The notes under the pieces are model-generated. The model was not told where the DNA came from, did no database searches, and saw nothing but the letters and a program-made list of their open reading frames with translations. Position numbers and translations under genes: made by a program. Of a DNA stretch of 64,000 bases, positions 2,552-64,000 are shown one piece after another; the first letter of the stretch is position 1; each line of letters begins with the position of its first letter. The DNA lies in assembly GCA_043818215.1 (NCBI GenBank), contig JBDRGC010000127.1:12832-76831 (forward strand), read 5' to 3'. The DNA comes from Chloroflexota bacterium (GTDB lineage: Bacteria; Chloroflexota; Anaerolineae; Anaerolineales; UBA11858).

Positions 2552-2555
2552 TGAT

Positions 2556-2592: not shown

Positions 2593-2595
2593 TGG

Positions 2596-4422: not shown

Positions 4423-4425
4423 ACC

Positions 4426-4498
4426 GGTATACAGAGTACACAGGGTATACAAAGTATGCAAAATATGCAAGTGGACACGCACAAATCCACTTGTATAC
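4426..4498. repeat. GTATACA-type heptamer words plus hairpin (stems 4468-4475 / 4486-4493)
   Basis: Degenerate 7-nt words are followed by the inverted repeat caagtgga...tccacttg, between convergent genes. This is a plausible bidirectional terminator. Confidence 0.6.
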
Positions 4499-4499
4499 T

Positions 4500-5066: not shown

Positions 5067-5069
5067 GAT

Positions 5070-5315: not shown

Positions 5316-5493
5316 TGTAACGACCTCCGTCGATAAAATTTCGGATGACAACGTGATTTTTGACAAGTATACTACGCCGTGTGTTGAAACGCACGGCTGA
5401 TATCGGAAACCCGTTGAAAACGGATTGAGATCACCTGCCCGCAACTCGCGCCCAGCTACACTTCGGGTATCAGCCGCTGAATTCATTCATCGG

Positions 5494-10575: not shown

Positions 10576-10668
10576 ATTGGTAGGTTGGTAGGTTGGTAGG
10601 TTGGTAAATTGGATCACCAATTTACCAATTTACCAATCTACCAATTCCCAATTTCCCAATCTACCAAT
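10553..10668. repeat. octamer array with inverted arms (TTGGTAGG x~7 / CCAATTTA-CCAATCTA x~6)
   Basis: The arms flank the centre GGATCACC near 10612 and the right arm is the reverse complement of the left. A long imperfect hairpin is predicted. Confidence 0.9.
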
Positions 10669-12981: not shown

Positions 12982-13056
12982 AACGTGAAGCGTGAAAACG
13001 TGAAGTTACGTATCACGCTTCACGTTTCCCGTCTCATGCCTCACGCCTCACGCATC
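12982..13056. repeat. inverted heptamer words (ACGTGAA / CACGCTT-CACGCCT)
   Basis: acgtgaagcgtgaaaacgtgaag is followed by cacgcttcacgtt and the CTCACGC units. Confidence 0.75.
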
Positions 13057-14193: not shown

Positions 14194-15035
14194 TCCCATC
14201 TCTGATCGTTCTATCCCATTATCAGGCTGAGTCTCTGATTCGTGCTAAGGGAAACACTGCGGCTGAAGTCTCCCCAGATTTAGGCTTGACCACGGTAACG
14301 GTCGCTCTGCAAAATGAAAAGATATGCTTCCCCAATGGCGAGTATCTTTCCTGGGGAGCTGTTGATGAAATCGCGGCTAACGAGAACAATTGCTTTGTGG
14401 TGGAAGGCGGGGATGTCACGGTTGTGCAAGCATTTTCCGAAACTTTCGAGCGGGTATACACTTTGTACCCCACAGAATCTGCTCCCACGATGCTGGTTTC
14501 AGGCTTGCCTATGCACCGCATCAAAGACACTGACCCCTGGCGCGATACGCAAAGCAAAATCAGGGCGATGGGGCGCGTGAGCGGGCAGGTGCTAGATACG
14601 GCAACCGGACTGGGCTATACTGCTATTATGGCCGCAAAAACCGCCGGCCAAGTGACAAGTATCGAGCTGGACCCGGCGGCGCAGGATATTGCCCGGCATA
14701 ATCCCTGGTCGCAGCCGCTGTTCGATAACCCCAAGATCACGCAGATCATCGGCGATACTTATGACGAAATCGAGGAATTCGACAGTAGCATGTTCTCTTG
14801 TATCATCCACGACCCACCGATGTTCAGGCTAGCGGGAGACTTGTATTCGTTAGCCTTTTACCGTCAGGCTTTTCGGGTGTTGAAACCGGGCGGGTGCATG
14901 TTTCATTATATCGGCAACCCGCACAGCAAGTCGGGCGGACGCGTCACCCGAGGGGTGATCCGGCGATTGCAAGAGGCCGGCTTTTTACGCATCACGCCCA
15001 GGCCGCAGGCATTTGGGGTGGTGGCGTATAAATGA
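14190..15035 (+). CDS. class I SAM-dependent methyltransferase (COG2521-like)
   Basis: Motif [13 protein letters not shown] and a later IIHDPPMF motif. It overlaps the upstream gene by 4 nt. Confidence 0.6.
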
Positions 15036-15224
15036 GTCCGCGAGTCAGCGAGTCAGCGAGTCGGCGAGTTGGCGAGTTGGCGAGTCAGCGAGTCGGCGAG
15101 TCAGCGAGTCAACGAGTCGGCGAGTCAGCGAGTTGGCGAGTTGGCGAGTTGGCGAGTCGGCGAAGTAGAAGATTGTCGAATCGCTGATTCGTTGATTCGT
15201 TGATTCGCTGACTCGCTGACTCAC
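15036..15224. repeat. octamer array (GCGAGTCA/GCGAGTTG/GCGAGTCG, ~16 units) with short inverted arm (GATTCGYT/GACTCGCT)
   Basis: Read directly. The array is stop-free, which generates the spurious ORF 15045..15239. Confidence 0.9.
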
Positions 15225-16012: not shown

Positions 16013-16087
16013 GGACTAGGAATCGGGAACTAGGAAGCTACTACATTCCCGACCCCTAATCCCTAATCCCTGATCCCTAGTCCCTGC
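15990..16087. repeat. inverted heptamer arrays (CAGGGAC/TAGGGAC then CCCTAAT/CCCTAGT)
   Basis: Read directly. It spans the stop of the acetyltransferase gene. Confidence 0.85.
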
Positions 16088-16092
16088 CTCCC

Positions 16093-17433
16093 ATGCTAAA
16101 AGAAATTCTCACCCAACTCTATCCCCTCCACCGCACGCTGGCTTGCGACGGTACTGACGAAGCCTTGCGCATTGTCGGTGCGCAGATGCCCGCGGCCGCA
16201 GGATATGCTATCGAAACCTACACCCCCGGCGCGCCCGTTTGGACGTGGAAGGTGCCGGAGCGATACATAGTTCACGAGGCTTATCTTGAAACGGAGAACG
16301 GCCAGCGCATCGTAGATTTTGCCGACAACCCTCTGCATATCGTTTCGTATTCCCTGCCCATAGACAAACTTCTTACCTGGGATGAACTCGAATCCCACCT
16401 GTATTTCAGCGAGAAACTGCCCCACGCCATCCCCTGGATTTTCAAATATTATCAGCGCGATTGGGGATTCTGCCTGCCCAAAGACACCTTCGACAAGTTG
16501 CCGCGGGATACCCGTTACCGGGCTGTCATCCGCAGCGAGTTTGTCACCGATCCCGATCATGGATTCCGCATCTCAACGGGAGTCCTAACCCCTAACCTCC
16601 TAACCCCTAACCCCCAAACTCCTAACTCGTATAGTACTAACAACCCCGGCGAATTCTTCATCTCCTCCCACATCTGCCACCCCATGCAGGCCAACGATGA
16701 TGCTGCCGGAGTGGTGACGGCCATCGAAGTGGCCCGCCGCCTGGCAGAGAATCCGCTTCCCCCTGGGTCGATGTCGGTGCGCTTCTGGTTCGGCCCGGAG
16801 ACCATCGGCACCATCGCTTACCTGGCTCACCACGAAGACCTGATTCCCCAACTCAAGGGCGGCATCTTCGTGGAGATGACTGGCAACCGCAGCCCCATTG
16901 CCTGGCATCACAGCCGCCAACACGACCACCTGCTCGACCGCGTCACAGACTACGTTCTACGCAACACGGATCACGTCGAGCGCGATTTCGCCGCCCACCC
17001 CGCCAATGACGAACGCGTCATCAACGGCCCCGGCGTCAACGTGCCCTGCATCTCGATCAACCGCTGGCCCTACGATGAGTACCACACCAGCGATGACAAC
17101 CTTGACATCATCCACGAAGATATGCTCCAGGAAGCCGCCGACGTGATCGAAGAAATCGTGCGAATTTATGCCAGCAACTACATACCCAGGCGTACATTCC
17201 GCGGACCGGTGTTTCTCTCCGGTCACGGGCTGTGGGTCGATTGGCGCGATAATTGGGAACTCAACCGCGCCATCGAAAAAATTATGATGCGCTTCGAGGG
17301 ACAGCACAGCATTTTCGACATCGCCGAAGAGGTGGGCCTGGATTACTGGGTGGTGCGCGAATACGTCGAAAAATTCCGGGCTAAGGGTTTTGTGAAAGCG
17401 CTGCCTATTCCCGGCGAGTCTCCGGGTTCATAG
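16093..17433 (+). CDS. aminopeptidase-like domain protein of polysaccharide loci (DUF4910/COG4310-like) with C-terminal winged-helix
   Basis: 446 aa with the M28-like core HICHPMQANDDAAGV. It contains an in-frame heptamer array at 16584-16628. Confidence 0.6.
   Translation: MLKEILTQLYPLHRTLACDGTDEALRIVGAQMPAAAGYAIETYTPGAPVWTWKVPERYIVHEAYLETENGQRIVDFADNPLHIVSYSLPIDKLLTWDELESHLYFSEKLPHAIPWIFKYYQRDWGFCLPKDTFDKLPRDTRYRAVIRSEFVTDPDHGFRISTGVLTPNLLTPNPQTPNSYSTNNPGEFFISSHICHPMQANDDAAGVVTAIEVARRLAENPLPPGSMSVRFWFGPETIGTIAYLAHHEDLIPQLKGGIFVEMTGNRSPIAWHHSRQHDHLLDRVTDYVLRNTDHVERDFAAHPANDERVINGPGVNVPCISINRWPYDEYHTSDDNLDIIHEDMLQEAADVIEEIVRIYASNYIPRRTFRGPVFLSGHGLWVDWRDNWELNRAIEKIMMRFEGQHSIFDIAEEVGLDYWVVREYVEKFRAKGFVKALPIPGESPGS
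16584..16628. repeat. in-CDS heptamer array (CCTAACC)
   Basis: It encodes LTPNLLTPNPQTPN inside the DUF4910-like protein. Confidence 0.8.
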
Positions 17434-20088: not shown

Positions 20089-20479
20089 CCCCACTGATTG
20101 GCTTTATTTTGCTCGTGAAGATCTTCGTGTGGCAGAATTGACGCTATCGAATGAGATTTACAACCAGGTATGTTTCCACTCTCAACAATGTTGTGAGAAG
20201 GCTCTCAAAGCCTGGCTTGCTCATCAAGGTATTGAATCGCCGAGAAAACATCAATTGAGTGTGCTATTGGCCCTTTCGACGATTGATATTTTTGCAGAGT
20301 TAGGTGGGGATATCGTTCGTCTTGATCGTTTTTACATTCCCACTCGCTATCCTGACGTGCTGGCAGGTTCACTTCCTGAGGGACTTCCAAATAAAGCAAA
20401 TGCCGAGGAAGCTATTGATACTGCTCGCAAAGTTCTCCACCGCGTCGAACAACATATTTCCACCCAACCCTCCCGTTGA
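20081..20479 (+). CDS. HEPN-domain toxin (copy B, diverged)
   Basis: FAREDLRVAE...FHSQQCCEKALKA and IPTRYPD motifs. The last ~19 residues are nearly identical to copy A. Confidence 0.75.
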   Translation: MGSPTDWLYFAREDLRVAELTLSNEIYNQVCFHSQQCCEKALKAWLAHQGIESPRKHQLSVLLALSTIDIFAELGGDIVRLDRFYIPTRYPDVLAGSLPEGLPNKANAEEAIDTARKVLHRVEQHISTQPSR

Positions 20480-21405
20480 TTCATCTCCCCTCACCTCTCT
20501 CCCCTCTTCCCTCTCCAAATATCATTGCCATCATTCAGGCTCGCATGGACTCATCACGCTTGCCGGGAAAAGTGCTGCTCGATATCGGCGGTCGTCCGAT
20601 GCTCCAGTGGGTCGTCGAGCGCACCCGCCGCGCCAAAACCGTGGACGAAGTCATCGTCGCCACCACCACCGACCCATCCGACGATGCCGTAGCCCAATTT
20701 TGCGAGGCCAAAGGTTACCCCGTCACCCGCGGCAGCATCCACGATGTGCTGGATCGCTACTACCAGACCGCCCGGCAATTCAAAGCCGACGTCATCGTGC
20801 GCATCACTGCCGATTGTCCGCTGATTGACCCCGCGCTGGTGGACGGGACGGTGTTCTCGTTATTTGAGATTGGAGATTGGAGATTGAAAGCCGAATCTCC
20901 AATCTCAAATCTCAAATCCCCGATTTTTGACTTCGTCGCCAACCGCCTCCCGCCTCCCTGGGGACGCACCTACCCCATCGGCCTCGACACCGAAGTTTTT
21001 ACATTCGATGCTCTGGAACGTGCCTGGAAGCGAGCTATCGCCAGACACCACCGCGAACATGTCACCCCCTATTTTTACGAAGACACTCCTGTCGATCATT
21101 TGAAATTCAGTGTGCAGGGATCGGAATTTTCCAGCGCCATGACACTTGATGGACTCCACATCGCCTTGCTCCACCACGACCCCGACTACGGCCGCCTGCG
21201 CTGGACGGTGGACACCCCCGCGGATTTGGAACTGGTGCGCGCTATTGTGGCCCATTTCGATAGCCGCGACGACTTCACCTGGCAGGATGTGCTGGCTATC
21301 TTCGAGCGCGAGCCGGAACTGGCGCAAATCAACGCCAGCGTGCGGCACAAGACACACTTGGATGTGGACGATAGGTCAGTAAATCAGGAAGCAGTAAATC
21401 AGTAA
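20476..21405 (+). CDS. cytidylyltransferase-domain protein (SpsF/PseF-like CMP-sugar synthetase family)
   Basis: IIQARMDSSRLPGKVLLDIGGRPML is the N-terminus typical of the SpsF/COG1861 family. The start codon is uncertain (TTG at 20476). It contains an in-frame array at 20866-20919, and its tail (NQEAVNQ) is array-encoded. Confidence 0.7.
   Translation: MIHLPSPLSPLPSPNIIAIIQARMDSSRLPGKVLLDIGGRPMLQWVVERTRRAKTVDEVIVATTTDPSDDAVAQFCEAKGYPVTRGSIHDVLDRYYQTARQFKADVIVRITADCPLIDPALVDGTVFSLFEIGDWRLKAESPISNLKSPIFDFVANRLPPPWGRTYPIGLDTEVFTFDALERAWKRAIARHHREHVTPYFYEDTPVDHLKFSVQGSEFSSAMTLDGLHIALLHHDPDYGRLRWTVDTPADLELVRAIVAHFDSRDDFTWQDVLAIFEREPELAQINASVRHKTHLDVDDRSVNQEAVNQ
20866..20919. repeat. in-CDS inverted heptamer array (GAGATTG x3 / AATCTCC-AATCTCA)
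   Basis: It encodes EIGDWRLKAESPISNLKS inside the cytidylyltransferase. Confidence 0.8.
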
Positions 21406-21588
21406 ATCAGGAAACCAGGAAACCAGGAATCAGTAGATCAGGATGCCAGGGAAGACTGATTTACTGATCTACTGATCTACTGATCTACTGATCTACTGAT
21501 TTACTGATCTACTGATTTACTGATCTACTGATCTACTGATTTACTGATTTACTGATCTACTGATCTACTGATCTACTGATCTACTAAC
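21376..21588. repeat. octamer arrays with inverted arms (CAGTAAAT/CAGGAAAC then CTACTGAT/TTACTGAT x~18)
   Basis: Read directly. It spans the stop of the upstream CDS and ends 3 nt before the next ATG. Confidence 0.9.
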
Positions 21589-28051: not shown

Positions 28052-28172
28052 GGATTAGGAACCAGGAAACCAGGAAACCAGGAAATCAGGAAACCAGGAA
28101 ACCAGGAAATACCGCCCCCTGGTCTACTGATTCCTGATTTACTGATCTACTGATCTACTGTTCTACTGATAC
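28049..28172. repeat. octamer arrays with inverted arms (CAGGAAAC then CTACTGAT)
   Basis: Read directly, between the sulfotransferase and oxidoreductase genes. Confidence 0.9.
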
Positions 28173-28179
28173 CTATACT

Positions 28180-29385
28180 ATGAAATTTCTCATCGCCGGC
28201 TTCGGCTCCATCGGACGCCGCCACTTTCGTAATTTGCTTGCTTTGGGTGAGCGTGACATTGTGTTCCTGCGCAGCAAGCGGAGCACTCTGCCCGATGCCG
28301 AGATAGCCGCTTTCCCCGTGGAGACTGATATTCAAGCTGCGCTGGCACACAAGCCGGATGCGGTGATTGTCTCGAATCCCACGTCGCTGCATTTGGATGT
28401 GGCCCTCCCGGCGGCGGAAGCGGGCTGCCACATTTTTTTGGAGAAGCCCATCTCCCATTCGATGGAGCGCGTGGACGAATTGCAGGCCGCAGTCCAGCGC
28501 GGGGGCGGGCAGGTGCTCGTCGGCTTCCAATTTCGCTTTCACCCCAGCCTGGGCCTCATCAAACAATGGTTGTCGGGCAACCACGCCCCACGCTCCACGC
28601 CTCACGCTCCACCCCCCACGCCCCATGCTCTACGCTCCACGCCACACCCCCCACGCCCCATGCTCCACGCCTCACGCTCCACGCCCCACGCTCCACGCTC
28701 CACGCCCCACCACACCCCACGCCCCACGCACCACTCCCCACTCCCCGCGCCCCCAATCTCCAATCTCCAATCTCTAATCTCCAATCCCCACTCCCCCATC
28801 GGCCGGCCCCTTTCCGCCCGCGCCCACTGGGGCGAATATCTCCCCGGCTGGCATCCCTGGGAAGATTATCGGCAGGGGTACAGCGCGCGGGCAGATTTGG
28901 GAGGCGGCGTGATTCTGACACTTTGCCATCCTTTGGATTATCTGCGCTGGTTGTTGGGTGATGTGACAGGATTGTGGGCGTTTACGGGAAAGGCCGGCGA
29001 TTTGGAGTTGGCAGTCGAAGATACTGCTGAAATCGGGCTTCATTTCGCCAGCGGAGTGATTGGCAGTGTGCATCTGGATTATAATCAACGCCCCCCGTCC
29101 CATCACTTGGAAATTGTGGGAACTCATGGAACCATCCGCTGGGACAATGCCGACGGCGCGGTGCATATCTATCGTGCCTCTTCTGATGAATGGGGCATTT
29201 ACCCGCTTCCGCAGGGGTTCGAGCGCAACCAATTGTTCCGGGATCAGATGAAGCATTTCTTAGCGGTCGTGGGTGAGGGCGAGCAGCCTGTCTGTACTCT
29301 CGAAGATGGTGTGTGGGCATTAAGGCTGGCATTGGCCGCGCACGAGTCGGCTCGAAAAGGGGAAGTTATTACTTGGGCAGCGTGA
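28180..29385 (+). CDS. Gfo/Idh/MocA-family oxidoreductase carrying a ~70-aa array-encoded insertion
   Basis: The N-terminal Rossmann domain (MKFLIAGFGSIGRRH, EKP motif) and the C-terminal Gfo-type domain are separated by the low-complexity stretch HAPRSTPHAP...PISNLQS. Confidence 0.75.
   Translation: MKFLIAGFGSIGRRHFRNLLALGERDIVFLRSKRSTLPDAEIAAFPVETDIQAALAHKPDAVIVSNPTSLHLDVALPAAEAGCHIFLEKPISHSMERVDELQAAVQRGGGQVLVGFQFRFHPSLGLIKQWLSGNHAPRSTPHAPPPTPHALRSTPHPPRPMLHASRSTPHAPRSTPHHTPRPTHHSPLPAPPISNLQSLISNPHSPIGRPLSARAHWGEYLPGWHPWEDYRQGYSARADLGGGVILTLCHPLDYLRWLLGDVTGLWAFTGKAGDLELAVEDTAEIGLHFASGVIGSVHLDYNQRPPSHHLEIVGTHGTIRWDNADGAVHIYRASSDEWGIYPLPQGFERNQLFRDQMKHFLAVVGEGEQPVCTLEDGVWALRLALAAHESARKGEVITWAA
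28580..28796. repeat. in-CDS heptamer arrays (CACGCCC/CACGCTC ~24 units, then CCAATCT ~5 units)
   Basis: Read directly. It is open in all three forward frames and two reverse frames (ORF track 28180.., 28367.., 28566.., 28559..28921, 28602..28799). Confidence 0.9.
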
Positions 29386-31375: not shown

Positions 31376-33127
<1,752 letters not shown>

Positions 33128-33198
33128 GTTTTGGAGCGATTCCCAGGTTTCAAAGGACGTTTTGCCAACTCAGAAAGTGCGTCGCACCTGAACTAACC

Positions 33199-34251
33199 AT
33201 GCCCGATTTACCTCGACTTTTCGATCTGACAGACCGCGTTGCCATCGTCACCGGCGCCGCCGGCCTGTTGGGAACTGAATTCTGCCGCACACTGGCCGAG
33301 GCTGGGGCGGCGGTTACGATTGCGGATATGGATGGGGACTCTGCCGCTGATGTGGCGGATACCCTCACCCGAGGCGGATTCCGCGCCCTGGGGCTTAAAA
33401 CCGACGTGACCGCGCCGGATTCCGTTACCCGAATGGTGGCTGCTACCCTGGGGGCATTTGGGCGTCTCGACATCCTGGTTAACTCCGCCGCTCTCGATCC
33501 CAAGGTCAGGGAGCAGGAAGCAGGAAACCAGGAATCAGGAAACCAGGGATTAGGGACTAGGGATCAGGGACTAGGGACTAGGGATCAGGGATCAGGAAAC
33601 CAGGGATCAGGAAACCAGGGATCAGGAAACCAGGGATCAGGAAACCAGGGATCAGGAAACCAGGGATCAGGAAACCAGGGATCAGGAAATCAGGGATCAG
33701 GGACTAGGAATCAGGAACCGGGAGAATCCCTAACCCCTAACCCCCTAACCCCTAACCCCTTGTCCCTCACCTTCGAAGACTACCCCCTCGAACTCTGGCA
33801 GCAAGCTCTGGACGTCAACCTGACGGGGGCTATGCTATGCTGTCAAGCCGCCGTGCGGCCCATGTTGGAACAGGGCCGCGGGGTCATCATCAACATCGCT
33901 TCCATCTACGGCCTCGCCGCCCCCGACCAGCGACTCTATCAGCGTGAAGGGCAGTTCCCGCAGTACAAGCCCGCCTATTACACCGTCACCAAAGCCGGCG
34001 TGCTCGGTCTCACCAAATATCTGGCGGCCTATTATGCTGGCAAGAATATCCGCGTCAATGCCCTGACTCCCGGCGGCGTCTACAACGGCCACGATGACGA
34101 GTTCGTCAAAGCCTACTCCGCCCGCGCCGTCATGGGCCGCATGGCCGAAAAAGACGAGATGAACGGCGCCCTCCTCTTCCTGGCCTCCGAGGCCTCCAAA
34201 TACATGACCGGCGCTAATCTCATCGTCGATGGGGGCTGGACAGCGTGGTGA
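33199..34251 (+). CDS. SDR-family oxidoreductase carrying an ~85-aa array-encoded insertion
   Basis: TGAAGLLG, NSAA and YxxxK (YTVTK) motifs. The insertion (GSGNQ)n lies right after the NSAA strand. ATG at 33199. Confidence 0.75.
   Translation: MPDLPRLFDLTDRVAIVTGAAGLLGTEFCRTLAEAGAAVTIADMDGDSAADVADTLTRGGFRALGLKTDVTAPDSVTRMVAATLGAFGRLDILVNSAALDPKVREQEAGNQESGNQGLGTRDQGLGTRDQGSGNQGSGNQGSGNQGSGNQGSGNQGSGNQGSGNQGSGTRNQEPGESLTPNPLTPNPLSLTFEDYPLELWQQALDVNLTGAMLCCQAAVRPMLEQGRGVIINIASIYGLAAPDQRLYQREGQFPQYKPAYYTVTKAGVLGLTKYLAAYYAGKNIRVNALTPGGVYNGHDDEFVKAYSARAVMGRMAEKDEMNGALLFLASEASKYMTGANLIVDGGWTAW
33506..33762. repeat. in-CDS arrays: CAGGAAAC/TAGGGAC words, a 15-nt (7+8) unit CAGGGATCAGGAAAC x~8, then CCTAACC
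   Basis: Read directly. The 15-nt composite period keeps the frame and gives (GSGNQ)n. Confidence 0.9.
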
Positions 34252-34352
34252 TTCCAGTGTTCAGTATTCAGTTTTCAGTAAAACCGAACACCGAATGCCG
34301 ATCACTGAACACTGAACACTGGACACTGAACACTGAATACTGATGACTGAAA
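34252..34352. repeat. inverted heptamer arrays (TTCAGTG/TTCAGTA then CACTGAA)
   Basis: Read directly, immediately after the SDR stop. Confidence 0.85.
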
Positions 34353-37931: not shown

Positions 37932-38322
37932 GAATCAGTAGGTCAGTAGATCAGTAGATCAGTAAATCAGGGATCAGTAGATCAGTAAATTAGTAAATCA
38001 GTAGATCAGTAAATCAGGAATCAGTGGATCAGGGAGCAGTAGATCAGGAATATAATCAGGGTTTCCTGATTTCCTGATTTCCTGGTTTCCGGATTTCCTG
38101 ATTTACTGATTTCCTGATTTACTGATTTACTGATTTCCTGATTTCCTGATTTCCTGGTTTCCTGATTTCCTGATTTCCTGGTTTCCTGATTTCCTGGTTT
38201 CCTGGTTTCCTGGTTTCCTGATTTCCTGGTTTCCTGGTTTCCTGATTTCCTGGTTTCCTGGTTTCCTGGTTTCCTGATTTCCTGGTTTCCTGGTTTCCTG
38301 GTTTCCTAGTTTCCTAGTTTCT
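37931..38322. repeat. largest array in the window (~390 bp): CAGTAGAT/CAGTAAAT arm then TTTCCTGA/TTTCCTGG arm
   Basis: About 48 octamer units can be read directly, with an orientation switch near 38055. It generates the spurious ORF 38127..38411. Confidence 0.9.
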
Positions 38323-39076: not shown

Positions 39077-39262
39077 GGGGACTGGTAAATTGGGGAGTGG
39101 TAAATTGGTAAATTGGGGATTGGTAAATTGGTAAACTGGGGACTGGTGATTGGTTCCCAGCTTACCAACCTACCAATCTACCAATCTACCAACCTACCAA
39201 CCTACCAATCTACCAATCTACCAATCTACCAATCTACCAACCTACCACTCCCCAATTCCCAA
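39077..39262. repeat. octamer arrays with inverted arms (TGGTAAAT/TGGGGACT then CCAATCTA/CCAACCTA)
   Basis: Read directly, ending 5 nt before the kinase ATG. Confidence 0.9.
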
Positions 39263-40683: not shown

Positions 40684-40790
40684 CTCGCCATTCGCCATTC
40701 GCCACTCGCCACTCGCCATTCGCCATTCGCCACTCGCCATTCGCCATTCGCCCCTCGCTATTCGCTATTCGCCACTCGCCACTCGCCCCC
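40684..40790. repeat. heptamer array (CATTCGC/CACTCGC, ~15 units)
   Basis: Read directly. It extends the ORF-track ORF 40658..41809 upstream of the real start. Confidence 0.9.
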
Positions 40791-40813: not shown

Positions 40814-41809
40814 ATGAAAAGACCACTCAGCATCATAATTCCATGCTTCAATGAACAAGCCACTATTCGTTTGCTGCTGGACGCCATCTACGCGCAAACG
40901 TATCCCCGCGAACAGATAGAAGTGATTATTGCCGACGGCATTTCCACGGATGATACCCGCGCAGAGATTCGCGCTTTCCAGCAAACCCATCCAGACCTGA
41001 ACATCGAAGTGGTAGATAACCTGAAGCGCAATATTCCTGCGGGGCTTAACCGAGCCATCGAGGCTGCTGGCGGAGAGTTCATCGTGCGGCTGGATGCTCA
41101 CTCTGTGCCCCACAATGATTACGTTTCCCGGTGCTTGGCTGCTTTAGATGCCGGCCTGGGCGACAACGTCGGAGGGGTGTGGGAAATCCAGCCCTCGGAG
41201 CCGGGATGGGTGGCACGTTCCATTGCGGCTGCGGCAGCCCACCCACTTGGCGTGGGCGATGCCAGTTACCGGGTCGGCGGCCAGCCACAAGCCGTAGATA
41301 CGGTTCCCTTTGGGGCCTTCCGCCGCGCATTGACTGATCGCATAGGCCTTTTTGATGAGACTTTGCTTTCCAATGAAGATTATGAGTTCAACGTTCGGGT
41401 GCGCCAATCGGGGGGCACTGTTTGGATGGACCCTGCAATCCGCTCGCAATACTTTGCGCGTCCTAACCTGCGGGCGCTTGCCAAACAGTATTGGCGCTAC
41501 GGGTATTGGAAATTGTGTATGCTGAGACGTTTCCCGGAGACGTTTCGTTGGCGGCAGCTTTCGGGGGCCTTCGTGCTTACCTGGTTGGTTTTAGGTATAC
41601 TTGCAATTTGGTTCCCTGTGGCTCAGTGGCTCCTGTCGGCGGAGGCTATCATTTACAGTCTAGCCCTGGCAATGGCCGGAGCGCAGACTGCTGTGAAAAA
41701 CCGTGATCTGGCGATGTTGGTTGGCGTGCCTCTGGCAATTGCAACCATGCACTTCGCCTGGGGAACAGCGTTTTTGTGGAGTTTGTTGAAATCGGTGATT
41801 GGAGATTAG
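40814..41809 (+). CDS. glycosyltransferase family 2 with C-terminal TM helices (ExoA-like layout)
   Basis: LSIIIPCFNE, ADGISTDDT and RLDAHS motifs. ATG at 40814. Confidence 0.75.
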   Translation: MKRPLSIIIPCFNEQATIRLLLDAIYAQTYPREQIEVIIADGISTDDTRAEIRAFQQTHPDLNIEVVDNLKRNIPAGLNRAIEAAGGEFIVRLDAHSVPHNDYVSRCLAALDAGLGDNVGGVWEIQPSEPGWVARSIAAAAAHPLGVGDASYRVGGQPQAVDTVPFGAFRRALTDRIGLFDETLLSNEDYEFNVRVRQSGGTVWMDPAIRSQYFARPNLRALAKQYWRYGYWKLCMLRRFPETFRWRQLSGAFVLTWLVLGILAIWFPVAQWLLSAEAIIYSLALAMAGAQTAVKNRDLAMLVGVPLAIATMHFAWGTAFLWSLLKSVIGD

Positions 41810-41909
41810 AGATTGGAGATTGGATACTGGAGATTGGAGATTAGAGACTGGAGACCGTAGACGGAAATTGAGACTGGAAATCTCTAATCCCTAATCTCCA
41901 ATCTCCAAT
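41795..41909. repeat. inverted heptamer arrays (GAGATTG/GAGACTG then AATCTCY)
   Basis: Read directly. It overlaps the GT2 stop. Confidence 0.85.
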
Positions 41910-43330: not shown

Positions 43331-43525
43331 TGGAGGGTGGAGCGTGGGGCGTGGGGCGTGAAACGTGACGAAGTCCCCGAAGCGCAGCGGAGTGGGAAGA
43401 CGTGAAACGTGATGCGTAGGCAACTTGCCTCTTGTACCTTGCCTCCTGCACCTTGCCCCCTGCCTCTTGCACCTTGCCTCTTGCCTCTTGCCCCCTTGCA
43501 TCCCGCCACCCGCCACTCGCCTCAC
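43331..43525. repeat. composite array: GGGGCGT/ACGTGAA words, a 45-bp conserved element, then CTTGCCT/CTTGCAC and CACTCGC words
   Basis: Read directly. It extends ORF 43409..45472 upstream of the real ATG at 43535. Confidence 0.85.
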
Positions 43526-46593: not shown

Positions 46594-46845
46594 GTTGCTC
46601 AAAATGTTAGTGGTGGATTGCATCCCAAAGGAAGCGTACCCACCAACAAAACCGAATTGTAAATGGTAAATGGTGAATTATAAATGGTAAATGATTGTGG
46701 CGCTGTCTGCACTTCATTTACAATTTACCATTCACCAGTTACCATTTATAATTTCATTCCCCCCTGCATAATTCAAATGACGCACTTTGGGGGGCAAAAA
46801 AGCATTTATGGGGATAACTTGAATAGACCGAACTGCAATATCATG
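46594..46845 (+). repeat. 252-bp dispersed repeat, copy A (contains a TAAATGG inverted heptamer hairpin)
   Basis: Near-identical to 48222-48473 in direct orientation. Confidence 0.9.
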
Positions 46846-48221: not shown

Positions 48222-48473
48222 GTTGCTCAAAATGTTAGTGATGCATTGCATCCCAAAGGATGCGTACCCACCAACAAAACCGAATGGTAAATGGTAAATG
48301 GTGAATTATAAATGGTAAATGATTGTGGCGCTGTCCGCACTTCATTTACAATTTTCCATTCACCATTTTCCATTTATAATTTCATTCCCCCTTCATAATT
48401 CAAATGACGCCCTTTGGGGGGTAAAAAAGGCATTTATGGGAATAACTTGAATAACCCGAACTGCAATATTATG
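48222..48473 (+). repeat. 252-bp dispersed repeat, copy B
   Basis: Near-identical to 46594-46845. It abuts a truncated trmO-like fragment. Confidence 0.9.
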
Positions 48474-57924: not shown

Positions 57925-57998
57925 GTTGGTAATTGGTAAATTGGTGATTGGTAGATTGGTAAATTGGTAATTGGTAAACTGGTGCTTGGTGGATTGGT
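57925..57998. repeat. octamer/heptamer array (TGGTAAAT/TGGTAATT/TGGTAGAT)
   Basis: Read directly, upstream (minus sense) of CoA-transferase A. Confidence 0.85.
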
Positions 57999-58183
57999 AT
58001 GCTCAGTATACTCCGCACGGTCAGTGTAAAGTCAATGTCATTAATTTTATCCATCGGCGGATTATAGCGCAGTATCCCCTTGCGGGATGAAACCGCCTGG
58101 AACATGTCAGAAAACCTTATTTTGCTCCTGTCGGATCCGTCCCTCAAGGGGATGCTGCGCGATGATCCGACAGACACCAACCC

Positions 58184-60661
58184 CTAACTTAATAACCTTG
58201 AGCATAAAGTGATCTCCAACTCACCAATCCGCTCGAACTCCACGGGGATACGATACCGGCCCTGACCGGCAGATTGGCAAGCAACCGGTTTCTGGTTTAA
58301 TACGACCTTGTCAGGGGGGCGCGGTAGAGCGACCTCTATCTCGCCCCGCGCTTTTCCCGGCCTCTCGAGGCGAACCCGGAGATTTGAGGGTGATTCTACC
58401 CATTGAGTGACTTCCAGCCCCTGAGAGATATGCAGGTCGCTCCCCAGGTACACCGCCCCCATCCGCCGCAGGGAAAGCAGCCGCACCCCGTGGGCCGGGA
58501 TTCCCCTCAGGGTCAGCACCCCTCCCCCAATCCGGGCAGTGGTTCCGTCCCAAAAGGAACGGGCAAAGTAATCCCCGTCGGGGTCGAGGTCGAATTTCTC
58601 CAAAGGCAGCCTCGCACCCGCAGGTTTATCATCCCAATTGAAAATTGCCAGCAAATGCCACACCCCGGTGACGTTTTCCAAATCCAATCGCAGCAGGCGC
58701 GGGGTGGCGGAGTCGAACCAATCGAGGACACGGGGTGACTCGCCAATCAGCGGTAGCAACTGCCCGGCGATGCGCAGACGATCCGGGGGCAGCTTGGGCA
58801 GGTCGTCGGAGAGCAGCACAGGGCCGCCGGTGAGGGCAATGGCCGTGGCAAGAGATCGAACTTCGTCCAGGGTGAGGTCTGAATCGGGGCGCAGCAACAG
58901 GCAGTCGGGGTCGTTGATCCACCAGCGGCGGTGGAATGGGGCGCGTGTGAGTATATTTTGGATGGCGTTGCGCACTGCGGGCATAGCCGGTTCATCTCGG
59001 AAACTGCCTTTGTGACCATGAAAGGCGGGCATCCAGTCGGGGGCCACATCGGCGCCGATACGCATGACGTCCACCAATCCGATGGCCGACCCCATCGGGC
59101 AGCCGCAGCCCAGCAGGGTGGTATCCGGCCCCGCGGCCTCCCGCAGTGCTTCCAGGCCGGTGCGCAAAACCTGGGCGCGGGTCTTGGTGCGGTCACGGTA
59201 GCGGCCGGGGAGCGCGGCGGCGTAGAGAAAATCGAGCTTGAGGTAGGAGTAGCCCCACTCGTGGGCTGCGGTGCGCACGACTTCGCGGGCATAATCGAGG
59301 GCCGGGGGGTGGGTCAGGTCGAGGGCGCGGTCGAATGCATTCCACACAAAACCGGCGTTGACTGGCAGCCGCCAGCGGTTGCGCAACAGCCAATCGGGAT
59401 GCTGGCGGGCCAGTTTCGATTTTGGGTGTACGATGAAAGGCGCCAGCCACAGGCCGGGCGTGAATCCCGCCGCTCGGATTTCGCCGGCCAGAGGAGCTAC
59501 CCCATCGGGGAAGCCGGGGGCGAAATCGAACCAATCGCCGATTTGAGCCTCGAAGCCATCGTCGATTTGGAAAAGCTGGAGGGGGATGGCCGGCCGCATC
59601 TCCGCAGCAGCCTGTAGGTTAGCGCGCATTTTGTCGGCGGTGATGTCTTGGAAGAAGTGATACCAGGAGCACCACCCTGCTGAAGACTGAAGATTGAAGA
59701 TTGAAGACTGAAGACCGAAGACTGAAGACTGAAGACTGAAGACTGAAGACTGGAGCCTATGTTCACGCGCTACAGCATTTAAATATGGGCCGAGGGGATC
59801 GGGGGCGTCGATGTTCACAAACTGGACAACGGCCCAGTCGGTACTCATTTGCGCGCCGGGGTCGAGGCGGGCATGATCGCCGTTGGCCCACAAACTCAGG
59901 GCCGGGTACACAGAGTCGCAGCGGGATTCGAGGGAGCCGAAGTGCTGCTTTTGGGAGAGGAAGCCCGCTAAGATACCGGTGCGGTGTTGGCGGTCTCCCA
60001 GCACGCCGAACATATCGCTGGCGAAGTGGCCGGCTTTTTTAGGGCGCGGCGTCCCGGCGTTGTACCACATCGGCGCGGCGATGAATCCCAGGCGTGTATT
60101 CCGGTAACTATCACCGGGGCCGAAAGCTCCCGTGTGAGACCAGGATTGCCAGCCGTTGGAGAAGAAAGCTATTTCCCCCAAGTCGGGGTGGGGGCGAATA
60201 GCCCCGTATCCGCTGGGAGGTGTATTTTTACGCAGGGAGACATATCCCGGTTCGGGCAGCAAAGTCTTCTTCGGGAAGAAGCCGGCTCGCAGAAGCACCA
60301 GGCGGTCGATTTCTACGGCGTGTTCCCCCTGATTTTCGATGCTCAGTTTCCACAGGAAAAGGGGGTGGTCTTCGGGTAAAGAAAATGTGAATGTATACCG
60401 CAATCCGTTTTTATCAGGGCCGATGGTGACGTGAAGCTGTGTCAGTGTTCCGTGGAGTGAGGGCATATTTTCGGGGCCGCGTATTTGGGGATTATGCCAT
60501 TGCTCCAAAGCCTGAAAGCGCTGCCGCCCGCGGCGATAGTGGACGCGCATCCACACATCTTCGAGAAAAGGGGACTCGCGGTTTGTCCCGTGCAAGCTCC
60601 AAGTAGCTTTGTCAGGGTTGATAATGAATTGGAGGTGGGGGGAAGTAAGTATAAAGGTCAT
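58184..60661 (-). CDS. GH36-family alpha-galactosidase (melibiase-like) with in-frame array insertion
   Basis: GWCSWYHF, QIDDGFE, YLKLDF, GCGCP and WINDPDC motifs. ATG at 60661 chosen, which removes the overlap with the next gene. Confidence 0.8.
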   Translation of the reverse strand: MTFILTSPHLQFIINPDKATWSLHGTNRESPFLEDVWMRVHYRRGRQRFQALEQWHNPQIRGPENMPSLHGTLTQLHVTIGPDKNGLRYTFTFSLPEDHPLFLWKLSIENQGEHAVEIDRLVLLRAGFFPKKTLLPEPGYVSLRKNTPPSGYGAIRPHPDLGEIAFFSNGWQSWSHTGAFGPGDSYRNTRLGFIAAPMWYNAGTPRPKKAGHFASDMFGVLGDRQHRTGILAGFLSQKQHFGSLESRCDSVYPALSLWANGDHARLDPGAQMSTDWAVVQFVNIDAPDPLGPYLNAVAREHRLQSSVFSLQSSVFGLQSSIFNLQSSAGWCSWYHFFQDITADKMRANLQAAAEMRPAIPLQLFQIDDGFEAQIGDWFDFAPGFPDGVAPLAGEIRAAGFTPGLWLAPFIVHPKSKLARQHPDWLLRNRWRLPVNAGFVWNAFDRALDLTHPPALDYAREVVRTAAHEWGYSYLKLDFLYAAALPGRYRDRTKTRAQVLRTGLEALREAAGPDTTLLGCGCPMGSAIGLVDVMRIGADVAPDWMPAFHGHKGSFRDEPAMPAVRNAIQNILTRAPFHRRWWINDPDCLLLRPDSDLTLDEVRSLATAIALTGGPVLLSDDLPKLPPDRLRIAGQLLPLIGESPRVLDWFDSATPRLLRLDLENVTGVWHLLAIFNWDDKPAGARLPLEKFDLDPDGDYFARSFWDGTTARIGGGVLTLRGIPAHGVRLLSLRRMGAVYLGSDLHISQGLEVTQWVESPSNLRVRLERPGKARGEIEVALPRPPDKVVLNQKPVACQSAGQGRYRIPVEFERIGELEITLCSRLLS
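59681..59754. repeat. in-CDS heptamer array (TGAAGAC on + strand, ~10 units)
   Basis: It encodes LQSSVFSLQSSVFGLQSSIFNLQSS directly before the catalytic-barrel motif GWCSWY. Confidence 0.9.
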
Positions 60662-60710
60662 GGGTTGGGGATGATCGCCGACGGACGACGGGTGACGGGC
60701 GACCGACGAC

Positions 60711-60811
60711 AAAGGTGCGACGCACTTACAATCAGTGCTCAAAAGTTGCGATTTGGCTTGATTTGACGCTGGTTGAGTGCATTGAAATGGTATAAAGTGC
60801 GTCGCACCTTC
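60711..60811. other. pair of inverted copies of the AGGTGCGACGCACTT motif separated by about 64 nt
   Basis: aaaggtgcgacgcactta (60711-60728) and taaagtgcgtcgcaccttc (60793-60811). This is the same core as at 24374-24413 and 33171-33190. Confidence 0.8.
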
Positions 60812-60857
60812 TGCCGATTGATATTGGCGGTCAGCGGTCAGCGGTCGGCAGTCGCTA

Positions 60858-61898
60858 TCAGCGGAGAACTTCACCCGTTTGTGCCAGCACCTCGAGTACT
60901 TTGTCGGCGATGGCGACGGTGGTGGAGCCGAGACCGCAGGCAGGGGTGATCAGGCTGCGAGACTCGAATTCAACGGGGTTGATGGACACTCCTCGGGCGG
61001 CAGCCTTATCGCAAATCAACGCCAACCCCGCGCGCAGTTGGTCGGCCAATCCCTGAGGGGTGACGGAGTGGATGTCTTCGTTGTTGGGCACGATGCCCCA
61101 GGCAACGATGCCGCCGCGGTCGAGGAATTTTCGCAGTTCCTCGGGATAGAGGGCCAGGTTGTCCAGGTATCCGTAGGCATCCAGGTTGAGAATGTCCAAC
61201 TGAGTAGCCAGCAGCACCGACCAATCGGTGTTGGCGCAGCAGTGTACACCGGTCAGAGCGTCCTCGGCGTGGATGGCTTCGAAGACTTCGTCCATCATGG
61301 CGATAGCTTGCTCGCGGCTCAGGCTGATAAAGGCCGAACCGAAGGATGCCATGTAGGGTTCGTCAACGAACATGATGATATTGGGGCGCACACTGCGGAG
61401 CTGCTGGATTTGCCAGCGAGCGTTCAGGGCCATATTTTTGACGATGGTGTCGGCCAGAAGTTCGTTGTAGAGCACGGAGCGCAGGTCTTGATCGACGACA
61501 GTGAGGCCAAAGCTGATGGGGCCGGTGACCTGTCCTTTGACCCATTCGCCGGGGGTGGCACGCAACGTGTCCAGCATGGCGTAGAATCCGGCGGCGTACT
61601 CCGGGGTGAGACCAAAAGCATCGAAGTCTTCGTCCAGGTATTTCATGTAGAAAGTTTCTAATTCGGGGGTGAAGTCGCCGGTGGTATCGAAGGTGATCTT
61701 CTGGTTGACTTCATCCAGCACGGTGCGGGGCAGCGCGGCGCTATACTGCGTGTACATATTCTCGCGGAAACCGAGGCGCACCATCTGCGGCCAGGTAGGG
61801 ATGTCGATGGCAGCGGCGATGCGCTGGCAGACTTCGACGGCGTCGGTATGCGGAAAGCTGCCGATGAGGGTTGTCAGGAAATTGGGTCGGAAGGTCAT
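60858..61898 (-). CDS. cobalamin-independent methionine-synthase-like (MetE C-terminal / URO-D superfamily) protein
   Basis: N-terminal TTLIGSFPHT and later HCCANTDW (metal ligands) resemble MetE-like methyltransferases. The substrate is unknown. Confidence 0.55.
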   Translation of the reverse strand: MTFRPNFLTTLIGSFPHTDAVEVCQRIAAAIDIPTWPQMVRLGFRENMYTQYSAALPRTVLDEVNQKITFDTTGDFTPELETFYMKYLDEDFDAFGLTPEYAAGFYAMLDTLRATPGEWVKGQVTGPISFGLTVVDQDLRSVLYNELLADTIVKNMALNARWQIQQLRSVRPNIIMFVDEPYMASFGSAFISLSREQAIAMMDEVFEAIHAEDALTGVHCCANTDWSVLLATQLDILNLDAYGYLDNLALYPEELRKFLDRGGIVAWGIVPNNEDIHSVTPQGLADQLRAGLALICDKAAARGVSINPVEFESRSLITPACGLGSTTVAIADKVLEVLAQTGEVLR

Positions 61899-62020
61899 AA
61901 AACTGCTCTCTCGTGGTATAATATTTCGGCGGGTGGCCAGTGGCGCAGCTATCCTTGACCGGACGCTCTCTCCCTGGCAGCAAGGCCCAACGCCGGCACA
62001 AAAGGGCCTCCCCGCTGGAA

Positions 62021-62503
62021 TTATTGGCCCGTGATCGGTATCAGCAGATCACGGGCTGTTATTATTCTATCAGCCCTGGCTATGCCTCTATATATTGCCA
62101 GGGCTTTTTTATATGCCGGCGATTTCTTTCCAACATATCCAAACGTGATATTTTCGGCGTCGTAATCAGGGTTGTCTCGCCATAGCAATGCCAACAGCAT
62201 GTTTTTGATGCTTTTCTCATGTCCAGTGTATTCTTTATCTATGACAACCCGTTCCCCTGGGGGTAATTCCCTGACCAGGTAATATAACGCCACAGCAAAG
62301 AGGCGCAGATGAACTCGTACACGCCGGCGTCCCCTGGGATGCGGGCGTAAAGCACGAATTGCCTCTCTCTTTTCCCTGGCAGGGATGCGGATCGTGTATT
62401 CTCTGCTGTTGCTCAAAGCCAGGGCGGTGTCGCCTGTGCTCTCGATCTTGTTACTTTGGTCTATTTGATAGGACAAACGGTCTGCCTCCCATCCTGTGCG
62501 CAT
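62021..62503 (-). CDS. hypothetical protein
   Basis: A 160-aa ORF, relatively AT-rich and basic, with no recognisable motifs. Confidence 0.3.
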   Translation of the reverse strand: MRTGWEADRLSYQIDQSNKIESTGDTALALSNSREYTIRIPAREKREAIRALRPHPRGRRRVRVHLRLFAVALYYLVRELPPGERVVIDKEYTGHEKSIKNMLLALLWRDNPDYDAENITFGYVGKKSPAYKKALAIYRGIARADRIITARDLLIPITGQ

Positions 62504-62512
62504 CCGACCTTT

Positions 62513-63775
62513 CTAGCAATGCAGCCTTCGCGCGGCCACAAACGACAACCCCCTCTCCGTCAACGCCCAGGCGGTCTTGTTGAGGGCATCGAATTTATCG
62601 AGGAAGTTTAGCTGTAAGGCGTCCCAATGGCCGGTTTCGATGATCTCATCTTTGGCCCGGAAATAGTCGAGGATGTCGGAGGGATGCTCGCGGGTCTGGT
62701 CGATCTCGGGGTCGCCGCCTTCGTGCTTGGCAGAGATATTGGCAACATGGCCGGCGATTTCGAGCAATTCGTCGCGGCGGTTGTAGGGCTGGATGACGAT
62801 GCTCTTGTACGTTTCGACAATATGGTGTTCGAAGCGCACAACATCTTCAAAGCCCCAGTCTTTGCGGAATTGGGCGGTGATCTCCATGGTTTCGTTGTTG
62901 ATCGAGTTGGCCCAGTTGAAGCCAATCAGCGGGGAGGTGCCGTCATCGCGGGCAAAGAGCTTGGCCCCAAGCAGAGTCCACAAAGCAGCGTAGGGATTGT
63001 CGTTACCCATATAGACCGAAATCTTGAATTCGATGTCCACACCAATGCGGTGAAGCATATAACTCAGCAGCACGGTGCCGGGGTTGATATTGAGCACCTG
63101 ATTGACGCCGTATTCGGTGTAATAATACAGGAATTCGTCGAGCCATTGAATGGCATGCCCATTGGGTTGACCCACACCGCCGAAGTAGCCAGTGATAGTT
63201 TCCGGGCCGCCGAGGTGGATATTGGAACCATCGGTGCCCTTGGTATCGAGGGTTTCCACGTAACTGGCTCCAACGATCTGCATGGCGGCAGCAAAAGCTG
63301 CCAGGTCGCCGTCGGCCTCCTGCTCTTTCATATTGCGGACGCGAATGAAGCGGCCTGGCATGAGCAAGCCTTCTGCAATGGCACGTTTGGCAATTTCGAT
63401 AAGATAAGGGAAGAATTGGCAGGCGCTGATCTCCAATGTGACTGCAAAATCGTCGGCAAAGGTCATCGTATCGGCTTTATCGCCGAGGACTTTGCGGCGA
63501 TACTCGTCCACGCTGATGAAGGCTCCCTTGTCGCGCTGCTCGGCCAGCCAGTCAAGGTCAGCGAGGTATTCGGGCTTGATGGCCTTCACACAGGCGAGCA
63601 GGGCAGACATTTCACGAGCTGCTTTGGCTTTAGCGTTGATCTCCTCGGGAGTGCCGTATTTGGCGACCACATCGAGAAAATCATTGATCACACGCGTATC
63701 GGGGTTTAGCAAGACGGCGTTGATGTCGTCGAGGCGGGAGGGGGGAATTTGTAGTAGTTTACGTAGGTCTGTCAT
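62513..63775 (-). CDS. conserved-looking hypothetical protein (420 aa), family not recognised
   Basis: A long ORF with a good coding pattern. The opposite-strand ORF 62627..63709 is judged a shadow. Confidence 0.4.
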   Translation of the reverse strand: MTDLRKLLQIPPSRLDDINAVLLNPDTRVINDFLDVVAKYGTPEEINAKAKAAREMSALLACVKAIKPEYLADLDWLAEQRDKGAFISVDEYRRKVLGDKADTMTFADDFAVTLEISACQFFPYLIEIAKRAIAEGLLMPGRFIRVRNMKEQEADGDLAAFAAAMQIVGASYVETLDTKGTDGSNIHLGGPETITGYFGGVGQPNGHAIQWLDEFLYYYTEYGVNQVLNINPGTVLLSYMLHRIGVDIEFKISVYMGNDNPYAALWTLLGAKLFARDDGTSPLIGFNWANSINNETMEITAQFRKDWGFEDVVRFEHHIVETYKSIVIQPYNRRDELLEIAGHVANISAKHEGGDPEIDQTREHPSDILDYFRAKDEIIETGHWDALQLNFLDKFDALNKTAWALTERGLSFVAARRLHC

Positions 63776-63796
63776 GGGTGGTCTCCTTTAGGTCAA

Positions 63797-63897
63797 GTGG
63801 CTAGGGACTAGGGGCTAGGGATCAGGTACTAGCCCTTATCCCTGGTTTCCTATTTTCCTAGTCCCTAGTTCCTAGTTCCTAGTTTCCTAATCACTAG
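63797..63897. repeat. inverted heptamer arrays (CTAGGGA/CTAGGGG then TTCCTAG)
   Basis: Read directly, between two minus-strand genes. Confidence 0.85.
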
Positions 63898-64000
63898 TCA
63901 ATCAAGTCCAACAAATCTTCGTACTCTTCATCCTTCATAGTGAACCAATTCTCGCGCTGCGGGAAAGTTTTGTCTTTCACTTCTGAAACGTATTCCTGCA
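63896..64000 (-). CDS. 3' end of an unidentified gene running off the window
   Basis: The open frame on the minus strand ends ...EEYEDLLDLID then TAG (CTA at 63896-63898). It is too short to classify. Confidence 0.25.

Follow-up and report, generated by a model that had tools for sequence, protein, structure and literature searches.

How does a tandem array of a seven-nucleotide (nt) unit come to stand in frame in the middle of a conserved catabolic enzyme, and is it of any use there? The question is raised by a gene for a glycoside hydrolase family 36 (GH36) alpha-galactosidase in a 64-kb stretch of contig JBDRGC010000127.1 (called the window here, at its full length) of an uncultured Chloroflexota bacterium from the order Anaerolineales. 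With a probability of about three in four, the array is a tolerated by-product, a heptamer microsatellite that expanded in place by slippage in a permissive linker of a functional GH36 enzyme and was filtered for reading frame. It is a real but fairly ordinary case of repeat-driven protein length variation.

The array lies on the minus strand at 59680..59752 and has a period of 7, 10.4 copies, 93% matches, no indels, and a score of 125 in Tandem Repeats Finder (TRF). It is the array located by the initial annotation at 59681-59754. Its unit is GTCTTCA on the coding minus strand and TGAAGAC or CTGAAGA on the plus strand, where the region reads (CTGAAGA)n. The longest perfect run has five units, and the variant units are CGGTCTT (once) and CAATCTT (twice). 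When the window was shuffled 50 times with dinucleotides preserved, the top TRF score was 58, and the mean number of TRF rows per shuffle was 9.2, compared with 113 in the window itself. A three-unit probe with up to three mismatches gave 11 overlapping matches, where 0 were expected. The minus-strand translation, ...AVAREHRLQSSVFSLQSSVFGLQSSIFNLQSSAGWCSWYHFFQDI..., is the in-frame peptide (LQSSVFS)n and agrees exactly with the translation proposed earlier, immediately before the GWCSWY motif. The open reading frame (ORF) crosses the array in a single frame, and homology is present on either side of it. Coding on the plus strand (antisense) was rejected, as the plus-strand unit contains TGA and the overlapping plus-strand ORFs are short and unsupported. 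In the region 58000-61200, no promoter-like sites were found, and terminator-like sites occurred only at chance level.

Repeats often break or distort metagenome assemblies, and assembly GCA_018812425.1 is broken around this locus. Nevertheless, an error of short-read assembly of a metagenome-assembled genome (MAG) is hardly a credible source of the array, and the same holds for the footprint of a mobile element in the gene. The array, alike in copy number and in its three variant units, recurs in two other assemblies (related loci L166 from GCA_018812425.1 and L167 from GCA_018822265.1), which excludes an assembly artefact. Between L167 and the window there are 10 single-nucleotide polymorphisms (SNPs) in 5478 nt. 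The 73 nt identical in the three assemblies are shorter than a typical read, and in independent samples and lineages homologous arrays occupy the same codon position. As to a foreign insertion, the flanks of the array have neither terminal repeats nor target duplications, and a short allele of the same unit, described below, points to growth in place.

The coding sequence of the host gene starts at the methionine of MTFILTSPHLQF and matches NCBI protein P0121 exactly and at equal length. A mechanical ORF reaching 60874 is an upstream read-through via upstream arrays and not the true start of the gene. The protein matched the Pfam family Melibiase (PF02065) with 54 bits against a cut-off of 27. 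TmGalA of Thermotoga maritima was the closest solved relative (phmmer against PDB 1ZY9, E=2.6e-64), with residues 325-647 of the query aligned to chain residues 194-501 and the alignment beginning with QSSAGWCSWYH at chain residue 194. An AlphaFold2 model built from 19 orthologs had a predicted template modelling score (pTM) of 0.74, and its best Foldseek matches were TmGalA structures (TMt 0.70, probability 1.00); an entry of a D387A mutant is named in the Foldseek table of these structures. The model has the N-terminal domain, the (beta/alpha)8 barrel, and the C-terminal beta domain of the GH36 fold. From sequence and model, the protein of 825 amino acids (aa) is assigned as a TmGalA-type GH36 alpha-galactosidase, in line with the initial annotation. 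Asp477 aligns with the catalytic nucleophile, D327 in TmGalA numbering, and Asp538 with D387, the acid/base residue. Both residues and the DDG motif are invariant in the alignment of 19 ortholog sequences.

Homologs of the protein are Anaerolineales/Chloroflexota proteins of about 810-820 aa. On the strength of these homologs, a cyanobacterial origin, which the heptamer load had at first suggested, was rejected. Gene order is kept in relatives, with a 347-aa gene followed by GH36 and two CoA-transferase genes. The gene lies beside these CoA-transferase genes and beyond the glycosyltransferase/polysaccharide block of the window, so its placement outside the glycan locus by the initial annotation was right. 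Among the window and its 86%-identical orthologs L001 and L002, the ratio of nonsynonymous to synonymous substitution rates (dN/dS) was 0.13-0.17 at dS 0.32-0.45, which indicates that the gene is under purifying selection. Together with the invariant catalytic aspartates, this ratio argues that the array-bearing gene encodes a working enzyme.

The array makes up nearly the whole interdomain linker R302-A328, of which it covers residues 303-328, and it ends one residue ahead of the GWCSWY strand. In the AlphaFold2 model, the N-terminal domain ends in a helix of residues 291-300 (PLGPYLNAVA), and the barrel opens with the beta-1 strand GWCSWY, the codon of G329 being at 59675-59677. Between this confident helix and the confident strand 329-334, residues 305-327 are coil with a predicted local distance difference test score (pLDDT) below 50, a prediction of a disordered loop for the repeat peptide. 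In a TIM barrel, the N-terminal end of beta-1 faces away from the active site. The peptide would be tolerated because it would form a disordered loop on the barrel face opposite the active site.

No other part of the protein varies as much among orthologs as the linker, both in length and in sequence. AVAR and GWCSWY are most often 15 aa apart (a linker of 12-13 aa) in 120 homologs, with a range of 5-45. Array-free genomes of distant Anaerolineaceae have a non-repetitive linker of 12 aa (36 nt), e.g., ENHIRVPEESPT, and not one of equivalent length, so the initial annotation holds on this point. In other lineages (L008, L087, L010, L012/L088/L091, and L013/L085/L089), the linker contains in-frame GC-rich palindromic inserts, present also in proteins P0023, P0038, P0043, P0047, and P0053. 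They translate to ...SPLPVGEGLGVRA..., ...SPSGRGERA..., or ...SPSKSGEMEGG.... Similar peptides (PKSGGMGG, SPPSPKIGGGG, and PPVSPPRAGGTEGG) were seen at two further variable positions of the alignment, and therefore there are several landing sites for small repeat elements in these enzymes.

Differences in unit number, envisaged by the initial annotation, do exist, as whole-unit length alleles of 4.4, 10.4, and 13.7 units are present at this one locus (Table 1). All observed length differences between alleles (42 and 21 nt) are multiples of 21 nt. The short allele L164 is on contig JAHJDT010000274.1 of GCA_018812425.1, the same MAG that contains the window-type allele L166. Its positions 939-5428 were compared with positions 59500-64000 of the window; the sequences are 99.84% identical over 4279 nt and then about 90% identical to the contig end, and the drop starts roughly 25 nt before the array. 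Either a recombination junction lies by the array, or the contig is a chimera assembled from two strains that co-occur. The two alleles co-occur in one MAG but may belong to different strains, and the claim that L164 proves slippage within a strain is weakened by the fall of identity just upstream of the array.

Outside this closest group, the tract can be followed over considerable divergence. L168, an ortholog fragment 67% identical over the searched region, has 4.5 AGTCTTC units in a 13-aa linker (GLQSSVFSLQSPV), and L009 (60% identity) has AGTCATC/AGTCTTC units in its linker. Other short period-7 linker tracts, in orthologs of the same 60-67% range of identity, are built of ATTGTCA (L004), ACGTCGC (L005), and ATTCGAA (L086). 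In every array-bearing ortholog, the period-7 signal along the whole gene is highest at the linker; windows with a lag-7 identity of at least 0.6 have a background frequency of 4.9e-4. In a neighbour-joining tree, lineages with a period-7 linker are in one clade, interleaved with lineages having palindromic-insert or irregular linkers, and outside this clade the linker is non-repetitive. The outgroup L018 has a single TCTTCAG within HLSSD. Genome and metagenome scans gave only one further close relative (L084, the same as L003).

The normal-length linker of the clade (12-13 aa) is thus already a heptamer tract of 4-5 units. The window allele is an expansion of this native tract by six units (+14 aa), and that of the sister lineage L001 an expansion by nine units (+21 aa). 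The array had been described as an insert. As an array it stands, but a foreign insert into a repeat-free linker it is not, the linker of the clade being already a 4-5-unit tract. A view that the units of sister lineages are unrelated and actively replaced was also abandoned, as in register the units TTCAGTC, TTCAATC, ATCAATC, TCCAGTC, and ATCAGTC differ by 1-2 substitutions. The sole true outlier is L165 (positions 1174-1260, ERZ25083882), an ortholog fragment of about 92% identity with four units of the C-rich heptamer CCGCYCC in its 12-aa linker (SLPAPRPPLPEV). Its contig is short (1.4 kb, 1.76x coverage), reads GWCSRY in place of GWCSWY, and runs into unrelated sequence at the 3' end, and it is therefore treated as unreliable. 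If genuine, L165 would exemplify the replacement of one unit by another in this linker.

The tract would have arisen in place in the linker and then grown by replication slippage. With a unit length that is indivisible by 3, the frame is kept only when the net gain or loss is three units. A change of one or two units would truncate the protein before the barrel, and purifying selection would leave only in-frame alleles visible. In simulation, a gain or loss of one or two units gave stops at aa 342-392, before the barrel, and a gain or loss of three units was read through. None of the nine independent period-7 alleles or lineages (window, L164, L001, L002, L168, L004, L005, L009, and L086) is out of frame. 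The coding-strand unit GTCTTCA is free of stops in all frames. The array can persist in the gene only in its present orientation because the opposite strand carries TGA.

The same frame behaviour would be expected of a contingency locus of the NeuO type, i.e., a selected slipped-strand switch with the enzyme on at 3n units and off at other counts. The unit is not divisible by three, the 10 copies include a perfect run of five, and changes of one or two units truncate the protein before the barrel. There is a precedent in the coding heptanucleotide AAGACTC of neuO, which is ON only at counts divisible by three (PMC13001214), and the two alleles co-occurring in one MAG could be taken in the same sense. 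However, none of the nine alleles at the present locus is out of frame, compared with 65.6% OFF among 64 genomes for neuO (PMC13001214). A targeted protein search in the close clade gave no OFF allele and no truncated OFF product, with the limit that consensus assemblies would mask minority OFF variants. The 10.4-unit allele is constant over three assemblies, the array is interrupted (93% matches), and the gene, on which purifying selection is steady, encodes a catabolic enzyme of cytoplasmic type and not a surface or host-interaction protein. A switch of this kind is decidedly unlikely here. Distant orthologs P0125, P0127, P0128, P0132, P0159, P0161, P0166, and P0170, on contigs of 48-588 kb, are split by frameshifts at scattered positions, and in none of these split genes was the frameshift located at a heptamer array. 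In P0170, it falls inside the non-repetitive linker and turns GWCSWYQF into RMVFMVPV. These scattered frameshifts are probably indel errors of long reads.

Several points weigh against simple tolerated expansion. Slippage as the mechanism, and its rate, are inferred. The unit AGTCTTC is kept in L168 and L009, where synonymous sites should be saturated. Such retention exceeds a strictly neutral expectation and hints at constraint on peptide or DNA, repeated re-seeding from the ancestral LQSS codons, or lateral exchange. No hypermutability is visible in the tract, since the 10.4-unit allele is the same in three assemblies separated by SNPs, and the short allele L164 may come from a recombinant strain or chimeric contig and not from simple slippage within a strain.

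Retention of the unit is also the best argument for an adaptive linker, in which domain spacing, stability, oligomerisation, or activity would be adjusted through the count of LQSSVFS units, and selection would keep the unit. Identical AGTCTTC/LQSSVFS units are present in the 67%-identical ortholog fragment and near-identical ones at 60% identity. Each position of the unit is read in all three codon positions, and selection on the peptide would conserve the DNA unit, because no unit-wide change would be silent. For neuO, a longer repeat is said to raise NeuO activity, in a statement that PMC13001214 itself cites from elsewhere. On the other side, sister lineages fill the same site with unrelated sequence (GC-rich palindromes, other heptamers, or irregular inserts of 22-45 aa), 12 non-repetitive residues suffice in distant orthologs, no structure is predicted for the peptide by AlphaFold2, and recurrence of the unit could be explained by shared seeding from ancestral LQSS codons. 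An adaptive role is thus quite unlikely, and the insert in the tolerated tract would be neutral for catalysis.

The locus is not isolated in its genome. In 64 kb, the window contains 49 merged arrays with units of 7 or 8 nt, i.e., 6.7 per 10 kb and with up to 33 copies (examples are 15034-15163, 21455-21585, 37934-38321, 28581-28790, and 33506-33717), and the density at L001 is 7.6 per 10 kb. Of 164 scanned sequences (the window and 163 related loci), 150 had no such array, and the load of 7/8-nt arrays is a lineage-specific trait. The arrays of the window are mostly intergenic or just before start codons. Families of units recur at several loci, namely TCCAATC, AATGGTA/CATTTAC, TCTCCCC, CCTAACC, ACTGATCT, AACCAGGA/GGTTTCCT, and TTGGTAAA. 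At least five further enzymes are crossed in frame, between or within their Pfam domains (Table 1), as judged from Pfam matches on either side of the array in one frame. Given these enzymes and the array load of the lineage, the GH36 array exemplifies something that affects the whole lineage, and it would be one local outcome of a genome-wide proliferation of 7/8-nt arrays. The initial annotation had concluded that arrays within coding sequences are not restricted to surface-glycan genes. This is correct, but it rests on the GH36 gene, as the other five arrays are within a stretch of 12.9-34.3 kb that also holds glycosyltransferase and sugar-nucleotide genes.

Table 1. Features of the GH36 locus and of other arrays, in window coordinates, and repeat alleles of the GH36 linker
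Feature	Position	Strand	Remarks
GH36 alpha-galactosidase, coding sequence	58184..60661	-	825 aa plus stop
N-terminal beta-sandwich domain, residues 1-300	59762..60661	-	AlphaFold2 secondary structure, ortholog alignment
Interdomain linker, residues R302-A328 (RLQSSVFSLQSSVFGLQSSIFNLQSSA)	59678..59758	-	coordinates checked; AlphaFold2; orthologs
Catalytic (beta/alpha)8 barrel region, residues 329-647	58721..59677	-	phmmer against 1ZY9, Foldseek
Asp477 in YLKLDF	59231..59233	-	aligns with TmGalA nucleophile
Asp538 in MRIGADV	59048..59050	-	aligns with TmGalA acid/base D387
Short heptamer array, CGACGGA on plus strand, 4.6 copies	60679..60710	-	TRF
Short heptamer array, GCGGTCA on plus strand, 5.6 copies	60827..60864	-	TRF
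GT4 glycosyltransferase, ORF 12982-14193	13589-13630		in-frame array between its two domains
DUF4910/M28-like, 16081-17433	16584-16626		in-frame array
CTP_transf_3 cytidylyltransferase, 20419-21405	20862-20918		in-frame array
GFO/IDH/MocA oxidoreductase, 28138-29385	28581-28790		array; 70-aa His/Pro/Thr-rich insert between domains
Short-chain dehydrogenase (SDR), 32794-34251	33506-33760		array; 85-aa insert, (GSGNQ)n
Array pair	10553-10606 + 10616-10668
Array pair	20862-20886 + 20894-20918
Array pair	34255-34280 + 34303-34351
Array pair	41797-41878 + 41879-41909
Array pair	46655-46693 + 46715-46748
Array pair	48283-48321 + 48343-48376
Alleles of window, L166, L167			10.4 units AGTCTTC; three assemblies
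Allele L164			4.4 units AGTCTTC; same MAG as L166; 42 nt shorter than window
Allele L001			13.7 units; 86% identity
Alleles L002/L003			about 4.4-5 units TTCAATC/ATCAATC; 86% identity; 12-aa linker

Many arrays stand directly upstream or at the 5' end of genes, such as 57926-57983, 43424-43499, 40685-40787, 39163-39247, and the two short arrays next to the GH36 gene (60679-60710 and 60827-60864). Of these two, the former is in the leader/intergenic region upstream of the GH36 start and the latter in the intergenic region at the 3' end of the upstream gene, and both are separate from the coding array. Orthologs have upstream arrays as well (L001 26-65 with TACTGAA and L002 3155-3257 with CACTGAA), the position being kept and the unit different. 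Such arrays at gene starts artificially lengthen stop-to-stop ORFs. Many of the arrays form adjacent reverse-complement pairs (Table 1), e.g., (AATGGTA)n followed by (TACCATT)n, which would form long tandem-repeat hairpins. The pairs at 46.6 kb and 48.3 kb have identical units, and the pair TTGGTAGG/TTTACCAA is complementary only when G-U pairs are allowed.

An ACTGA/TCAGT core is common to several unit families (GACTGAA, CACTGAA, ACTGATCT, TCAGTAAA, and ATCAGTAG), and ACTGA-core arrays are at 59680-59752, 34255-34351, 21376-21585, 28119-28170, and 37934-38047. The TAACTGA repeats of Beggiatoaceae, cyanobacteria, and Bacteroidetes have the same core. This core and the likeness to the neuO unit may be coincidence or may reflect a shared sequence preference of the underlying process.

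The frequency of related ACTGA-core arrays in leaders and intergenic regions, both in the window and at orthologous loci, raises the idea that the GH36 array acts as nucleic acid, in the same system as these arrays, either as a platform for a heptamer-recognising protein or as a translational pause at the domain boundary. A post-transcriptional function has been proposed for the TAACTGA heptamers of Beggiatoaceae, and CspB reportedly binds heptamer repeats with one protein per unit (PMC4679880). Exact placement at domain boundaries also recurs in other enzymes of the window, but this is equally expected from a filter of tolerance. In addition, RNA folding of the array region was predicted to be no better than that of shuffles (z=0.18), no Rfam family reached the gathering score across the whole window, and the GH36 array is without a partner inverted array, unlike many intergenic pairs. 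A role of this kind is very improbable.

It is also unlikely that the GH36 array is a visible product of an active lineage-specific process by which 7/8-nt arrays are seeded, kept up, and changed in size at particular sites (leaders, hairpin pairs between genes, and enzyme domain boundaries). If it were, the same unit at the same codon position in 60-67%-identical orthologs and the many in-frame arrays of the window would be selected length-variable, repeat-encoded linkers or a means of stochastic gene inactivation, and the system would be a bacterial chromosomal counterpart of the amino acid tandem repeats (aaTRs) of Borgs, with a non-triplet unit and in a free-living environmental host.

As a tolerated expansion, the locus is a clean example of a non-triplet microsatellite inside a conserved enzyme, and it defines the conditions of this state: one orientation, a permissive domain boundary, steps of three units, and ongoing purifying selection on the rest of the protein. 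What is new is modest, namely that a heptamer tract has kept its place in a single enzyme linker throughout a diverged clade and that enzymes of this lineage contain in-frame arrays at high frequency. The heptamer/octamer load of this uncultured Anaerolineales lineage is comparable to that of cyanobacteria and Beggiatoaceae, and such a description is absent from the searchable literature; a literature search gave no paper on heptanucleotide repeats in Chloroflexi or Anaerolineae. For annotation and work with MAGs, it matters that such arrays lengthen ORFs, break assemblies, and can mimic strain variation. Should reads show unit counts other than 3n, the gene would be a candidate of a rare sort, a catabolic gene of a free-living bacterium subject to phase variation.

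Among known systems, the TmGalA-type GH36 enzymes (PDB 1ZY9 and 5M0X) share with the window protein the catalytic barrel, the GWCSWY beta-1 motif, the K-x-D nucleophile, and the acid/base Asp. Unlike TmGalA, which has HTPT at the position of the repeat loop, the window protein carries a repeat-encoded loop ahead of beta-1 and is about 270 residues longer, its N- and C-terminal domains being larger.

The nearest relative of the array itself is the coding heptanucleotide variable-number tandem repeat of neuO, the capsule O-acetyltransferase gene of E. coli K1 (PMC13001214). Both are coding heptanucleotide repeats translated as heptapeptide repeats, with the frame kept only by multiples of three units, and the neuO unit AAGACTC is identical in six of seven positions to the plus-strand AAGACTG of the GH36 array, but on the opposite strand. 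The neuO repeat, however, has been shown to act as a phase switch and sits at the 5' end of a surface-modification gene carried by a phage. The GH36 array is interrupted, stands mid-protein at the domain boundary of a catabolic enzyme, and has 0 of 9 alleles out of frame.

Heptamer simple sequence repeats are over-represented in some bacteria, such as cyanobacteria, Xanthomonas, and Beggiatoaceae, and they show indels in 7-nt steps between strains (PMC4692102, PMC4679880). The Anaerolineales arrays resemble TAACTGA of Beggiatoaceae, cyanobacteria (STRR-type), and some Bacteroidetes, and GGGAATC of Xanthomonas/Nostoc, in being over-represented genome-wide and lineage-specific, with recurring unit families and a mostly intergenic or leader position. 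Copies of the TAACTGA type within ORFs occur in the stop-free orientation only, a rule described by MacGregor, and in variable surface loops, an example being LSVINYQLS in an RpoC-like protein (PMC4679880). Coding-strand TCAGTCT gives SVFSLQS in the GH36 gene, and TCAGTTA of the TAACTGA type gives SVISYQL. Unlike STRR1-3/TAACTGA, the GH36 unit AGACTGA (plus strand) shares only the ACTGA core, and in contrast to TAACTGA-type genomes the Anaerolineales arrays are longer (10-33 units), include 8-mers, and repeatedly enter well-conserved enzymes.

Tandem repeats within ORFs of Borgs always preserve the frame and give rise to intrinsically disordered stretches of protein, their units being divisible by three (PMC9879509). 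Like these aaTRs, the arrays of the window are pervasive, fast-evolving, and genome-specific, and occur both between genes and in ORFs. Unlike them, as Borg aaTRs have triplet units that are mostly unique per locus, the arrays described here have a 7-nt unit, keep the frame only at steps of three units, and belong to unit families present at many loci.

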